From a virus: a stretch of 64,000 nt of DNA. The DNA is taken from UHGV virus genome UHGV-0018629; one strand, given 5' to 3'. The notes beneath the pieces were generated by a model. It was not told where the DNA came from and made no database searches. It saw only the letters and a program-made list of their open reading frames with translations. Each line of letters opens with the position of its first letter. Positions within the stretch are counted from its first letter, which is position 1. Made by a program: the position numbers and the translations under genes. Of the stretch, positions 1 to 4,724 are shown in pieces.

Positions 1-159
1 GGTATTCAAAGCGTTCTCGGAAATAGTGGAGGTGTTACTGGACTATCTAATTCGCTTTCACGACTTAGTAGATTAGGGGGAACTGCAGGAAGCATTTCAA
101 ATATTAATACTATGACAGGAATTGTCAATTCGCAAAGTAAAATATTAGGAGCAATATAA
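1..159 (+). CDS. 3' end (C-terminal ~52 aa) of a late structural gene entering from upstream; by synteny with T4, possibly the baseplate gp54 homologue
   Basis: Frame 1 open from window edge to TAA at 157-159, followed by a perfect hairpin; identity from position only. Confidence 0.35.
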   Translation, partial: GIQSVLGNSGGVTGLSNSLSRLSRLGGTAGSISNINTMTGIVNSQSKILGAI

Positions 160-478
160 CAATGGGGACCTTTCGGTCCCCATTGTTATATTTACGGAAT
201 GAAATAAAAGCAGCAACTGAAGCAACTAAACTTTCTTCAATATAAACCTCAATTTTTACCGGAGCTTCTGACTCAAATTTACCTGTTACTACACCTTGGA
301 AAATACTTTCAGTCTGCTCTGGCTTTGAAAAATTTTCAGAAGGAAAAATTCCGAACTTTTTATCGGTTCCGAAAATTTTAATAAATTCATCATAAACTGC
401 TTCATTGAAAGCGTTATCAGCTGGAATAACGCCCTCAACGACGAGTTCTTGACCTAAAAAGCGCAAAGAAGATTTCAT
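125..478 (-). CDS. Hypothetical early protein (117 aa)
   Basis: ORF track; GAGGA Shine-Dalgarno 8 nt upstream of ATG; early promoter at 510-539; 3' end overlaps the convergent plus-strand CDS. Confidence 0.5.
   Translation of the reverse strand: MKSSLRFLGQELVVEGVIPADNAFNEAVYDEFIKIFGTDKKFGIFPSENFSKPEQTESIFQGVVTGKFESEAPVKIEVYIEESLVASVAAFISFRKYNNGDRKVPIVILLLIFYFAN
159..187. terminator. Perfect hairpin (caatggggacc-tttc-ggtccccattg) between convergent genes
   Basis: 13-bp stem read directly. Confidence 0.55.
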
Positions 479-509: not shown

Positions 510-539
510 ATTATAACACAACACGAGGGACTTGTAAAC
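510..539 (-). promoter_or_regulatory. T4-type early promoter (-35 GTTTAC, 18 bp, -10 TATAAT)
   Basis: Reverse complement of gtaaac (534-539) and attata (510-515). Confidence 0.7.
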
Positions 540-2596
540 TACATCTTGAACTTTTTAGACATTCCGTTGATGTTAACCAAAGAAGCCAATATTTGAGAAA
601 CTTCGTTTTCCTCTTCTTTTGATTCTTCTACAAGGAATTGATTAAACCCAGCCATTGGACGAACTTCACCAGTTTCCATTAGATGATCGCCATCATATAC
701 TGATTCTTCTAATTGTTCAGAAGGAGGAACGATTGTGCCTTCGATTAGATACTTATTATAAGCAGTTTCTTTCGTCATGTACGTACTTACTTTATTAATC
801 TTCAGTAAAATTCCACGTGGCAAAATAACTTCAGCTTCGGATGGAAATCCTGATAAATGACCTGGAACGATAACTTTAACTCGTTCAGCTCCTTTAATTA
901 CCATACCTACATTAGTTTCAGCGTCTTCATTCGCATATGTAGAATGACTACCCATATGCATTAAATCTTCGGCATCAACTGAACCTTCTCCTTCGCCAGA
1001 AAATACTGCTCCGGAATCATCTAGAGCCATATAATTTTTACCATACTCACCAAAGATATTTGGTTTAAGTGATGTCGATACGAAGTTCTTGAAATAGAAC
1101 ATTTTATTTTCAATGTTATGACGCAAAGTTTTAAAGGTAACTTCTTGCCCGCGATAAAGAGTAGTTCCTGGAGGAAGAACTGAACCTTTAGTAAATGCAG
1201 AATCCAACGCTTCGATGTTCTTAATAGCACGTTCCATATATTCTTCACGGGTGGAATCTGGTTTACCTAAAAGGAACGAGTTCATTTCAACATATGAATC
1301 TGCACAATACTCTTCAATTACATCAGACTCAGCCTGAGTTAATCCTTTTGGAGTTACTTCAGTGCTTGCATATTCATACGCCTGAGCAGCGGATTCATCA
1401 ATCAATTTATAAATTCCATTCATTACAAATTGAATAATAGCTGTCTTTTCATCTGGTGTAGCTTTAGAACCTTTAACTAAATCATTGATAATTTTCTTAA
1501 TAACATCAAAGCTATTAGAAATATTAATATCAGCAAGATCGCTTAAAATTTTATCAGCTTTATAATTAAAAAATTCTTTATTCTTTGAATATTCCTGAGA
1601 ACCTTGATATGATATATCGCTCTGCAACTTGATAGATGGATCACGTAAACGTGCATGAGCCAATGCAATATGATTTCTGAAGCTTTCTAATTCATAATCG
1701 CTAGATTTAAAACGAGAAGCACTTCTCATACCACCGATAGCTCCTTTGCTGAAGTTTGAACCAACTTGAATAACACCAGAGTTCATCGGTCCTTCTGCTT
1801 TATATACCGGAACTTTAGATTCAAACTCTTGATATTTCTTGGCAGCGAAGCTATCACCCTGAAGTGAAGCATCAACAGTAGAATATTGAGCTTGTGCTGC
1901 TAATCGACGACTAATTTTAGTTTTTTGAATAACAACTTGATCCGTGCGCTTATCATTTTCTAAAGCAATAGAAGCAGCAACAGCAACAGCTTTAGGAACA
2001 GCATTTCCTGTTTTAACGTCTACATAAACATCACCGACCTTTGATTCAACTTTTGTGAATAGCTCTGTTGAAATAGGAGGTACACCTGGAATGTCTTCTA
2101 AATTGGCATTTTTACGGTAAACCATAATATATGCATACTTTTTATCATAATCCCAGATTTCCTTTAAAAGAACGTATCGACCTGCTCCTTTAGTACGTAC
2201 TAAACGGTCAGCAATAACTTGCATTTGACGAGCTGCGCCATTTGTTTTACTCTTTAGTACGCGGAATAAGCATGCATCAATTTTATACTGTTTCATTGTT
2301 TGAAGAGCAGTATCAAAAACCGCATTAATGACACCAATTGGATTTCCACCTAAGTTTTTAAGTTTAACTAATGATAGTTTCTCATTAACACCTATCATTA
2401 CGATATGCATCATTTTATCGCCTGGCTTAACGTTTTTATTTGTATCACCACCAGAAGTGTATGTACAAAATCTAAATCCAGGGAGAACACTTTCTTCACC
2501 GGCTTGAATAGCAAAAATTTGAGGTATTTTATGCTTAGGATTTAAGTTAACAACCGGCGCCGAAGCGCCGTCAAATAATTCTGTAATAAGTTCCAT
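539..2596 (-). CDS. alt: Alt-like ADP-ribosyltransferase (685 aa), packaged internal-protein type, paralogue 1
   Basis: N-terminus MELITELFD (capsid-targeting/prohead-protease-type leader); C-terminal R-S-E ART motifs (YRGQ, FVSTSL, EAEVILPRG); size close to T4 Alt. Confidence 0.8.
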   Translation of the reverse strand: MELITELFDGASAPVVNLNPKHKIPQIFAIQAGEESVLPGFRFCTYTSGGDTNKNVKPGDKMMHIVMIGVNEKLSLVKLKNLGGNPIGVINAVFDTALQTMKQYKIDACLFRVLKSKTNGAARQMQVIADRLVRTKGAGRYVLLKEIWDYDKKYAYIMVYRKNANLEDIPGVPPISTELFTKVESKVGDVYVDVKTGNAVPKAVAVAASIALENDKRTDQVVIQKTKISRRLAAQAQYSTVDASLQGDSFAAKKYQEFESKVPVYKAEGPMNSGVIQVGSNFSKGAIGGMRSASRFKSSDYELESFRNHIALAHARLRDPSIKLQSDISYQGSQEYSKNKEFFNYKADKILSDLADINISNSFDVIKKIINDLVKGSKATPDEKTAIIQFVMNGIYKLIDESAAQAYEYASTEVTPKGLTQAESDVIEEYCADSYVEMNSFLLGKPDSTREEYMERAIKNIEALDSAFTKGSVLPPGTTLYRGQEVTFKTLRHNIENKMFYFKNFVSTSLKPNIFGEYGKNYMALDDSGAVFSGEGEGSVDAEDLMHMGSHSTYANEDAETNVGMVIKGAERVKVIVPGHLSGFPSEAEVILPRGILLKINKVSTYMTKETAYNKYLIEGTIVPPSEQLEESVYDGDHLMETGEVRPMAGFNQFLVEESKEEENEVSQILASLVNINGMSKKFKM

Positions 2597-2599
2597 GAT

Positions 2600-4696
2600 T
2601 TATCCTTGAACGAACTTGTAAGGCATGTTTGTAATATCTATGCAAGACGCAATAATTCCAAGAGATGATTCTACTTTTTGTTTAACATTTGATGAAACAA
2701 ATGATGCAAAGTCAACTCTGTCTTCTATTTCAATATCACCTGTCATTGCAACTACTTCACCGGTTTCCATTAGATGGTCTCCGTCATAGATTACCGATTC
2801 GGTGAGTTCTTCTATGGTCATAACTTCAGCTTGAATGAGTTTTGTATTATTAGATGTTGTTCCGTCATTATTAGAAGCATCAGTTATTTTATTAACTTTA
2901 ACCATCAATCCGCGCGGTAGAATAACTTCAGCTTCTGTTGCTATTCCGAGACTTCCTGGATATACAACATTAACTTTATGAGCTCCATCAATTGCCCATC
3001 CTATTTGAACTTTAACGTATTCAGGATTTTCTTTATACGCTCTTATTTCATTTGGATTAATAGTTATTCCTTCTTCATTTTTATCAACTGTCAATTCATT
3101 ACGAGCTTCTGGTTCTAAAAGACCAATACCAGCATGTGTAATTCCAAAACGTCCAAAAATGATAGGAGTTAAAGAAGTAGATACAAAATTTCTGAAATAG
3201 AACACTTTATTTTTAACTAGTGCTTCGTATATAGGAGCAGTCATACTTTGAGCACGATAAACTGTGATGCCTTCCGGTATACGGTCACCATTTTCAAAAG
3301 CTGAATCTAAGTTATTTATAGCAGATTCAATTTCTTTTTCACTCATTACATCATATCGTTCTGGATTGTAACGACCTAAAAGAAGATTATTGATGTCAGT
3401 ATATCCTGAACCGCAATATTCTCTAATGCCACGCTTTTGTAATGGAGTATATTTAGAACCATCGCGGGCAATAGTAATATCAATCATTGAACCAGCACCA
3501 ATTCCAGAAAAACTGTAAATCATTCGTTTGAGGAATTTAGTTTTTGCTGCGTTCCAGGAATTTTTAGTTATTTCTTCCCAGACTTCATCTGGTTGTCCTT
3601 TACGGGTTTTATTATGACTAGCAAGCCATTTATCTTTATAATCTTCAAAGAATTTATTAACAGCTGCTGCGTATTTCTCTAAACATTTTATTGAAGTAGT
3701 TGGTTCATTTTTAATCGCGTTAAAAATTACATCTTTAATTTTTTCTGAAACTTCACCGACTTGACTCATTGGAAAGAATTTATAGTCATAGTGAAGTTCA
3801 TCTGCAGTTCCTTCAGCAATAATTTTTGCTGCCTTAGTTTTAGAAGCCAATGAATTAATTCCAAGTTTCATTTCTTCTGCTTCGGGAATTAAAGGAGCGG
3901 TAGCAGGTTTATTGAAATTAGCTGCGGTAGATTCATACTTCTGGAATAATTCACTTTCAAATCTAGAAGATTCTAATGATTGACTTTGTGCAATTGCTCT
4001 ACGGGAAATTTTAACTTTAACGATTACAGCTTGGTCAGAACGTTTATCGTTTTCTTGCGCAATAGATGCTGCAATTGCCTCATTTTTAGTTACTTGAGCT
4101 CCGGTATCTTTATTGATATAAACATCACCGACCTTCGATTCAACTTTAGTAAAGAGCTCGGTACTAATTTCCGGAACTCCTGGAATGTCTTCTAGTGATA
4201 CATTTTTGCGATGTATAAGAATATATGCATACTTTTTATCATAATCCCAGAGTTCCTTAAGAAGGACATATCTGCCACCTGAACGACTACGGATAAGTCT
4301 ATCAGCAATAACTTGAATTTGTCGAGCTTGACCAGCGGTTTTAGACTTAAGAATACGAAGCATGCAAGCATCAATTTTATACTGACGCATTGTTTGCATT
4401 GCAACAGTAAAAACTGAATTAATATAATTAATTGGGCTTGGACCGAGACCTTTCAATTTAGCAATTGAACCTTTAGCGGTTAATGTAAAAGGAACAATGT
4501 GCATCATTTTATCGCCCATTTTTAAATCACGGTTAGTATCACCTCCAGATGTATAGGTGCATAGACGAAAGCCTGGTTGTTCAATTGCATCATCAACGTG
4601 AACTGAAAAAATTTGTGGTATTTTCTTCTTTGGATTTAAGTTTGTAATCGGAAGAGTAGTATCTTCGTCAAATAATTCTGTAATAAGTTCCATCAT
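2600..4696 (-). CDS. alt: Alt-like ADP-ribosyltransferase (698 aa), paralogue 2, in tandem with the first
   Basis: First ~240 aa nearly collinear with ORF 539-2596, divergent centre, conserved ART motifs (YRAQ, FVSTSL, EAEVILPRG); 3-nt intergenic gap. Confidence 0.8.
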   Translation of the reverse strand: MMELITELFDEDTTLPITNLNPKKKIPQIFSVHVDDAIEQPGFRLCTYTSGGDTNRDLKMGDKMMHIVPFTLTAKGSIAKLKGLGPSPINYINSVFTVAMQTMRQYKIDACMLRILKSKTAGQARQIQVIADRLIRSRSGGRYVLLKELWDYDKKYAYILIHRKNVSLEDIPGVPEISTELFTKVESKVGDVYINKDTGAQVTKNEAIAASIAQENDKRSDQAVIVKVKISRRAIAQSQSLESSRFESELFQKYESTAANFNKPATAPLIPEAEEMKLGINSLASKTKAAKIIAEGTADELHYDYKFFPMSQVGEVSEKIKDVIFNAIKNEPTTSIKCLEKYAAAVNKFFEDYKDKWLASHNKTRKGQPDEVWEEITKNSWNAAKTKFLKRMIYSFSGIGAGSMIDITIARDGSKYTPLQKRGIREYCGSGYTDINNLLLGRYNPERYDVMSEKEIESAINNLDSAFENGDRIPEGITVYRAQSMTAPIYEALVKNKVFYFRNFVSTSLTPIIFGRFGITHAGIGLLEPEARNELTVDKNEEGITINPNEIRAYKENPEYVKVQIGWAIDGAHKVNVVYPGSLGIATEAEVILPRGLMVKVNKITDASNNDGTTSNNTKLIQAEVMTIEELTESVIYDGDHLMETGEVVAMTGDIEIEDRVDFASFVSSNVKQKVESSLGIIASCIDITNMPYKFVQG

Positions 4697-4716: not shown

Positions 4717-4724
4717 TATTTATA
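4717..4724 (-). promoter_or_regulatory. Late promoter TATAAATA for the alt tandem
   Basis: Reverse complement of tatttata about 20 nt upstream of alt paralogue 2 ATG. Confidence 0.6.

Follow-up and report, generated by a model that had tools for sequence, protein, structure and literature searches.

A tandem pair of Alt-type ADP-ribosyltransferase genes in a T-even phage and the candidate role of its second member

The Alt protein of phage T4 (gpAlt, NP_049811) is a component of the prohead core that is injected together with the DNA (PMC9026906; PMC2988021), and mass spectrometry has located its cleavage by the prohead protease gp21 at ITE-6 and LTE-619, yielding a mature protein of 68.2 kDa (PMC5694885). 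It modifies Arg265 of the RNA polymerase alpha subunit along with other targets, and ModA of T4 modifies the same arginine (PMC2988021). In this study, we focus on the corresponding locus of UHGV virus genome UHGV-0018629, where two full-length alt-type genes, here called AltA and AltB, lie in tandem within the 64,000 nucleotides (nt) that were analysed (the window, to which coordinates refer unless another sequence is named). Comparable arrangements have been recorded before: Aeromonas phage 44RR carries two tandem full-length alt copies, a duplication noted in 2006 by Nolan et al. (PMC1524935), and the genes of Dhakavirus JS98 have been named altA and altB since 2007.

The locus is quite probably the late alt operon of a Tequatrovirus (T-even) phage encoding two functional paralogous mono-ADP-ribosyltransferases, with the overall proposal that AltB is packaged and has distinct targets. 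For AltB itself, the most far-reaching reading, with a probability of roughly 0.45, is that it is a second head-packaged, injected ADP-ribosyltransferase whose targets, such as a factor of defence or translation, are unlike those of Alt. The two enzymes would then have in common an exchangeable head-incorporation domain, held alike through recombination of the tandem copies, and effector modules that evolve apart as old lineages.

Architecture of the tandem pair

AltA, the orthologue of T4 alt, lies at 2600..4693 (-) and encodes 697 amino acids (aa) from the T4-equivalent ATG, with its stop codon at 2600-2602. An in-frame ATG stands one codon upstream, at 4694-4696, and the open reading frame (ORF) counted from this first ATG covers 2600..4696 and 698 aa; the start of T4 alt is annotated at the second ATG, corresponding to window position 4693, which gives AltA its 697 aa. 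AltB, the second full-length paralogue, occupies 539..2596 (-), with its stop at 539-541, and comprises 685 aa. The two ORFs adjoin on the same minus strand with a gap of 3 nt, in the gene order end of gene 54, alt.-3, AltB, AltA, alt.1 and DNA ligase gene 30, and the order from gene 30/alt.1 to alt.-3/gene 54 is the same in the window, T4, T2, T6 and JS98. Both proteins match PHROG 802, "Alt-like RNA polymerase ADP-ribosyltransferase", from end to end (E = 6e-272 and 6e-255 for the two proteins) and the Pfam family PF03496 ADPrib_exo_Tox (E = 1.3e-36 for AltA and 1.8e-20 for AltB). PF03496 was their sole match in the Pfam scan, and none of three proteins matched NCBIfam.

An earlier note on this DNA had described two adjacent full-length Alt-type ORFs with a shared N-terminal part of about 240 aa that includes MELITELFD, a divergent central region and C-terminal R-S-E motifs in both, and all of this is borne out. 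The proteins (698 aa from the first ATG, and 685 aa) are 42% identical (E = 2e-162, BLASTP). By region, pairwise alignment gives 68% identity over residues 1-238, 15% over 239-425, 37% over 426-625 and 47% in the C-terminal tail; MELITELFD is the start of both AltA and AltB, and the motifs YRAQ/YRGQ, FVSTSL and EAEVILPRG were all found.

Both proteins follow one plan: a predicted 6-residue propeptide ending in I-T-E, an alpha/beta domain of about 230 residues shared by both copies, a copy-specific helical domain of about 190 residues, a C3/VIP2-type ADP-ribosyltransferase (ART) domain with Arg, Ser-Thr-Ser and Glu-x-Glu, and, beyond an L-x-E/S site (here and below the slash before S marks the cleavage point), a predicted C-terminal propeptide that is acidic and disordered and has 54-65 residues. 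In AltB, the predicted propeptide and capsid-targeting leader MELITE, which ends in the gp21 site I-T-E, corresponds to residues 1-6 (2579..2596 (-)), and its AltA equivalent to 4676-4693 (-). The alpha/beta domain follows at residues 7-238 (1883..2578 (-); 3974-4675 (-) in AltA) and is filed as PF26846 Tevenvirinae_ADPRT on near-identical proteins, with precomputed matches for proteins that share 97% identity with AltB and for others of the AltA type. The paralogue-specific central domain of AltB, predicted to be all-helical, spans residues 239-425 (1322..1882 (-)), and that of AltA, not detectably related to it, lies at 3404-3973 (-). The ART domain of AltB covers residues 426-631 (704..1321 (-)), with catalytic R482 at 1151-1153, S507-T-S509 at 1070-1078 and E587-x-E589 at 830-838, all (-); in AltA it is found at 2798-3403 (-), with R480 at 3254-3256, STS at 3173-3181 and ExE at 2927-2935. 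In a 13-sequence family alignment, R482, S507, S509, E587 and E589 (AltB numbering) are invariant, and specificity for arginine is predicted for both proteins. The predicted C-terminal propeptide of AltB, residues 632-685 (542..703 (-)), comes after a gp21-type Q-L-E-E/S sequence and holds a conserved YDGDHLMETGEV motif, and that of AltA (2603-2797 (-)) would begin after E-L-T-E/S.

An AlphaFold2 (AF2) model of AltB, computed like the others from shallow family alignments of 12-13 sequences, has a predicted local distance difference test score (pLDDT) of 78 and a predicted template modelling score (pTM) of 0.72. It divides the protein into an alpha/beta part (residues ~11-240), an all-helical part (~250-470) and an ART part (~470-625), with disordered ends at 1-10 and 631-685 and pLDDT below 50 over 631-685; the isolated N-domain was modelled with pLDDT 83. 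When central profiles of the A and B types were compared, hhalign returned a probability of 1% from shallow profiles. Homology between the two central regions was rejected at this value, with the qualification that the profiles are shallow and both regions are predicted to be helical, which makes a common origin possible.

Maintenance, lineages and probable exchange of domains

The earlier note had implied that a second intact paralogue would be new with respect to close relatives. This part did not stand, as the pair is present in T2, T6, about 400 Tequatrovirus records and JS98; what stood is that no redundant function is known for it. Some of the records counted here and below are duplicate GenBank/RefSeq entries or laboratory variants, and the counts are therefore approximate. 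At least 80% of the 8-kb region is covered in 402 phage records, many of which list two ADP-ribosyltransferase genes at this place, and RefSeq labels both JS98 genes "Alt-like RNA polymerase ADP-ribosyltransferase". AltB occurs at ≥95% identity in 397 phage records and the 697-aa AltA allele at ≥90% identity in 317, with a further 211 records in the band of 60-80% AltA identity, where the T4-type allele falls. T2 and T6 carry the same pair of 697 + 685 aa, the AltB protein being 97% identical to the T2 copy, and AltB is intact in about four in five sequenced relatives. The pair is thus an already known, common annotated genotype of T-even phages, to which T4 is the deletion exception.

T4 has, as the earlier note stated, a single alt gene (682 aa) followed by the small ORFs alt.-1, alt.-2 and alt.-3. 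AltB residues 1-56 and alt.-1 share 95% identity, AltB residues 62-116 and alt.-2 share 98%, and over the same stretches the two small proteins are about 60% identical to AltA. Their PHROG families, 23015 and 15247, likewise give AltB a better score than AltA. A blastn comparison of T4 with the window places the stretch missing from T4 at 559..2248 (-), 1,690 bp that correspond to AltB codons ~117-679. Its flanks share a 9-nt microhomology, CTAAA(G/A)AGT, through which the T4 junction reads, and T4 also has a frameshift near AltB codon 57. The comparison shows alt.-1 and alt.-2 to be what a microhomology-mediated deletion left of a full-length AltB, and not a partial duplication. In the T4 record the two are attributed to an old duplication that involved the first part of alt, and the T6 record describes AltB as an "apparent insertion in alt.-2; also similar to alt", a label that reverses the direction of the event. 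The T4 junction was found in 91 of 498 records; the rest split the junction query into two places overlapping by the 9-nt microhomology, and AltB is therefore intact there. AltB is dispensable in the sense that a phage can lose it, as T4 did, and accessory genes for host takeover or counter-defence are typically polymorphic in this way, present in some phages and absent from others.

Pairwise Nei-Gojobori estimates for AltB among the window, Sf24, T2 and T6 gave ratios of nonsynonymous to synonymous substitution rates (dN/dS) of 0.04-0.065 at dS 0.12-0.23, low in all four regions of the protein, and a dN of about 0 in the C-terminal tail. Given this low dN/dS, a frame preserved in hundreds of genomes and catalytic residues that do not vary, comparison of these sequences identifies AltB as a maintained gene under strong purifying selection and not a decaying copy. 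That AltB might be a pseudo-enzyme or a duplicate in decay, heading for the T4 state, is very improbable. The instability of the locus would suit such a course, with a T4-type deletion in 91 records and deletions that fuse A to B in metagenomic contigs; it is contradicted by the selection analysis (dN/dS ~0.05 at substantial dS), by a 685-codon frame that stays intact in 397 records at ≥95% identity, by the invariant catalytic triad and by the fusion variants themselves, which keep the effector part of AltB.

Comparison with JS98 separates two types of effector part. JS98 altB is 45%, 56% and 63% identical to AltB in the centre, ART domain and tail, against 10%, 37% and 47% to AltA, and JS98 altA has the reverse pattern, being closer to AltA than to AltB. 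The N-domain behaves differently: within a single phage the two copies share 64-68% identity (window, JS98 and the putative pair P0018/P0008, two proteins from contigs of equal length), whereas orthologues across genera reach 46-47%. Neighbour-joining trees with 200 bootstraps repeat this division. The N-domain tree groups by phage lineage (Tequatrovirus A+B 0.92, JS98 1.0, 44RR 1.0), with support of 0.0 for A-type and B-type clades, and the ART tree groups by type (A 1.0, B 0.97), with 0.0 for grouping by lineage and 44RR as the exception. From these trees we infer that the A and B effector modules are old separate lineages, kept since before the split of Tequatrovirus and Dhakavirus. The simplest reading of the incongruence would be an old duplication of the effector part followed by repeated exchange of the N-domain between the tandem copies, by gene conversion or crossover; an alternative is co-adaptation of both copies to a head partner specific to each lineage.

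These patterns also bear on whether AltB is a redundant back-up or dosage copy, packaged and directed at the same targets as Alt, which we regard as unlikely. Architecture, catalytic residues and processing motifs are indeed alike in both proteins, AltB has been lost in T4 and 90 other records, and overlapping ARTs already exist in T4, where Alt and ModA both act on alpha Arg265 (PMC2988021). Redundancy is hard to reconcile, however, with central domains that lack detectable homology (hhalign 1%), with ART domains only 37% identical and with A and B modules held apart across two genera at dN/dS ~0.05; a spare copy would be expected to decay or to be homogenised over its whole length, yet the N-domain alone is homogenised.

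Four hybrid genes pass from an AltA-type N-terminus to AltB at about residues 54, 110, 192 and 222 (P0003, P0004, P0005 and P0007, respectively). In both contigs inspected, metagenomic phage sequences of 65 kb and 110 kb with the hybrids at L006 5001-7055 and L007 5001-7061, no alt gene other than the hybrid stands between alt.1 and alt.-3, and each has a single clean A-to-B switch of informative sites. The hybrids keep the effector module of AltB and not that of AltA, and their sequences show unequal recombination between the tandem paralogues. That P0003 and P0005 are assembly artefacts was considered and rejected, the longest identical run in the N-domain-coding part being 32 nt, too short for a collapse at k = 99; the two contigs come from different sources.

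The alt gene itself is dimorphic in Tequatrovirus, with a 697-aa allele (T2, T6, RB14, RB51 and the window at 2600-4693) and the T4 allele (L001 5455-7503). AltA and T4 Alt are 70% identical overall; their N-domains agree completely (100%) and their tails nearly so (96%), the centre falls to 36% and the ART domain to 63%, and no similarity between the two alleles was detectable at the DNA level across the centre. The dimorphism looks like replacement of an effector cassette by recombination. The alt locus thus exists in at least four states: A with B; A with a B remnant, as in T4; an A::B fusion; and either alt allele, apparently each combined with AltB.

Predicted packaging, expression and candidate role of AltB

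The processing signals of AltB can be read against those of T4 Alt. The mass calculated for T4 Alt residues 7-619, 68.2 kDa, equals the published value, and the mapping of the gp21 sites is therefore taken as valid. The AltB leader MELITE is identical to that of T4 Alt, and Q-L-E-E/S aligns with the LTE-619 cleavage site, at which all aligned family members have (L/I/M)-x-E followed by S, A or N. The predicted mature AltB would comprise residues 7-631, with a calculated mass of 69.0 kDa, and its predicted propeptides match the disordered ends of the AF2 model. By motif conservation, gp21 would process both AltA and AltB at either end.

Expression signals are arranged around the pair. A putative T4 late-promoter motif, TATAAATA, stands at 4717..4724 (-), 23 nt upstream of the AltA start codon, and occurs at the same spacing upstream of T4 alt. 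As the motif has 8 matches in the window vs 9.9 expected, a count not above chance, its reading as a promoter rests on position and conservation. A Shine-Dalgarno-like AAGGA for AltB (2603..2607 (-), read GTTCAAGGATAAATCATGG) is contained in the final AltA codons and precedes the ATG of AltB by 6 nt, which suggests translational coupling of the two genes. AltB would then be expressed late through co-transcription with AltA, and the layout of promoter and Shine-Dalgarno sequence fits late co-expression of both, as for head proteins. A second TATAAATA was observed within AltA at 3313-3320 (-), some 720 nt upstream of where AltB begins; this match could have arisen by chance or could serve AltB as an internal late promoter. 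Candidates for a promoter of sigma-70 type belonging to AltB were rejected, being not above shuffled expectation.

The same signals speak to the idea that AltB is an active ART outside the virion, acting late in the producing cell in the manner of the unpackaged ModA and ModB, an idea to which we give little credence. It would agree with the lack of a late-promoter motif directly upstream of AltB, yet the gene lies 3 nt from AltA with its Shine-Dalgarno sequence in place and downstream of the late-promoter motif of alt. AltB has kept the exact MELITE leader and the L-x-E/S site of T4 Alt head processing, as well as a 230-residue N-domain found only in Alt-type proteins. ModA and ModB, in contrast, are small early proteins of about 200 aa that have no leader, no N-terminal head-targeting domain and no propeptides, and they are not packaged.

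In the mechanism proposed for the pair, the TATAAATA promoter in front of AltA would drive late synthesis of both AltA and AltB, which would enter the prohead core by way of their shared N-terminal part and be trimmed by gp21 at both ends; after injection with the DNA, they would ADP-ribosylate host proteins on arginine. This whole route of late expression, packaging and injection is proposed for both proteins by analogy with T4 Alt. AltB is strongly conserved as judged from its sequence, predicted to be active and probably packaged. Because its central domain and ART surface differ and the separate A and B lineages have been kept long-term under purifying selection, AltB most likely has a set of host targets distinct from that of Alt, which includes RNA polymerase alpha Arg265. 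The suggestion of the earlier note, a diversified packaged effector, is thus plausible, with indirect support from purifying selection, the gp21 motifs, the late layout and the age of the A and B modules.

Several points weigh against this reading of AltB. The argument for distinct targets is drawn solely from divergence and long-term retention, the structural models come from the shallow alignments mentioned above, and the window scan found no TATAAATA immediately upstream of AltB that would serve as its own late promoter. No defect is known in T4 or in the 90 further records from which AltB has been lost, and T4 can do without alt itself, so that AltB may add little. Searches of the open-access literature found no study of a second Alt paralogue by functional assay or proteomics.

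As a discovery the pair matters little, being annotated in hundreds of sequenced T-even phages. Knowledge of injected ADP-ribosyltransferases, on the other hand, comes almost entirely from T4, which is without the second enzyme, and if AltB is indeed packaged and its targets are distinct, T4 as a model would give an incomplete picture of how T-even phages take over the host in the first seconds. The domain-wise evolution and the A::B hybrids moreover mark a boundary between head-targeting and effector parts that would be useful for engineering T4 heads for protein delivery.

The alt.-3 allele, the N-domain family and known systems

Directly after the AltB stop and before alt.-3, a strong early-type promoter was identified at 510-538 (-), consisting of TTTACA, a 17-nt spacer, TG and TATAAT. 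It has 11 of 12 matches and a T4-style GTTTAC -35 element, and it is kept in T4 just past the deletion junction. A promoter of this kind suggests that alt.-3 is expressed early and apart from the late alt genes. The alt.-3 homologue itself, at 125-478 (-), encodes 117 aa vs the usual 96 aa, with the variant site at 156-189. Its first 96 aa are 99% identical to T4 Alt.-3, and the stop codon has been removed by three substitutions within 9 nt (TAT AAC AAT vs the common TAA AAA TAT). The same substitutions perfect the hairpin between gene 54 and alt.-3, giving an 18-bp stem of -29.7 vs -18.8 kcal/mol, and the change looks like a quasipalindrome-templated correction. The new tail, ending ...KVPIVILLLIFYFAN, almost equals the tail ...SVPIVILLLIFYSAN produced in T4 by a 1-nt deletion, and Alt.-3 extensions of this class, to 110 or 117 aa, are reported to let T4 escape the CmdTAC defence by blocking degradation of CmdA (PMC11618068). 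The 117-aa allele was found in 0 of 488 phage records (best match 97%) and was absent from IMG/VR; the exact protein occurs on only 3 contigs of a large collection, in which the other listed full-length cluster members have 96 aa. Judged by its sequence, the allele may be a natural counter-defence allele.

The N-domain shared by AltA and AltB forms a small family restricted to phages, with 69 clusters (at 50% identity) among 1.84 billion proteins and is always N-terminal in position. Ten atypical clusters were scanned, of which seven have PF03496; the remaining three comprise one with a degenerate ART-like motif, one that is a 221-aa fragment and one (P0228) with an unrelated C-terminal part. 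P0228, of 541 aa, combines an Alt-type N-domain (27% identity, E = 8e-7) with a C-terminal region that has no ART or Pfam match, and is the sole family member found with an Alt-type N-domain but no ART match; it may be an Alt-like head protein with a different effector. The N-domain as a general delivery module of a polymorphic effector system was rejected, as it is nearly always joined to an ART, with 1 possible exception in 69 clusters. Nor was the domain filed as a GNAT (Gcn5-related N-acetyltransferase). The Pfam scan, with E up to 0.1, gave no GNAT family, and the sequences K-N-L-G-G-N of AltB and K-G-L-G-P-S of AltA, in the loop preceding helix 86-103, do not agree with Q/R-x-x-G-x-G/A, the motif by which GNATs bind the pyrophosphate of acetyl-CoA before helix alpha3; only L79, K80 and G83 are invariant in this loop.

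Among described proteins, T4 Alt is the closest counterpart, with the same locus, late-promoter motif, R-S-E ART and gp21 motifs at both ends. Over its N-terminal 240 aa it is identical to AltA and 67% identical to AltB, and its identity to AltB falls to 11% in the centre and 37% in the ART domain, a divergence much greater than that of AltA. The experiments on packaging, processing and targets are all those of T4 Alt, whereas AltB is known here from its sequence. T4 alt.-1 and alt.-2 (NP_049810 and NP_049809) are fragments where AltB is full-length. ModA and ModB of T4 belong to the same R-S-E (Alt/VIP2-Mod) ART clade, are likewise directed at arginine and have their targets in the transcription and translation machinery of the host (PMC5512222; PMC2988021). 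The C3/VIP2/iota-type toxins (Vis, C3bot, Certhrax and CdtA) are 14-25% identical in sequence to the Alt proteins, but are delivered by secretion or binary-toxin pores, unlike delivery from a phage head, and act on eukaryotic targets such as actin and Rho. MuF-fused and polyvalent phage effectors embody the same concept of a head-incorporation module joined to an injected enzyme (PMC9503650; PMC5512222), although the Alt N-domain is not MuF and is almost never joined to other types of effector. The pairs of T2, T6, Sf24 and JS98 have the same tandem arrangement as the window, JS98 altA and altB being orthologues of the A and B types, and differ from it in no essential respect.

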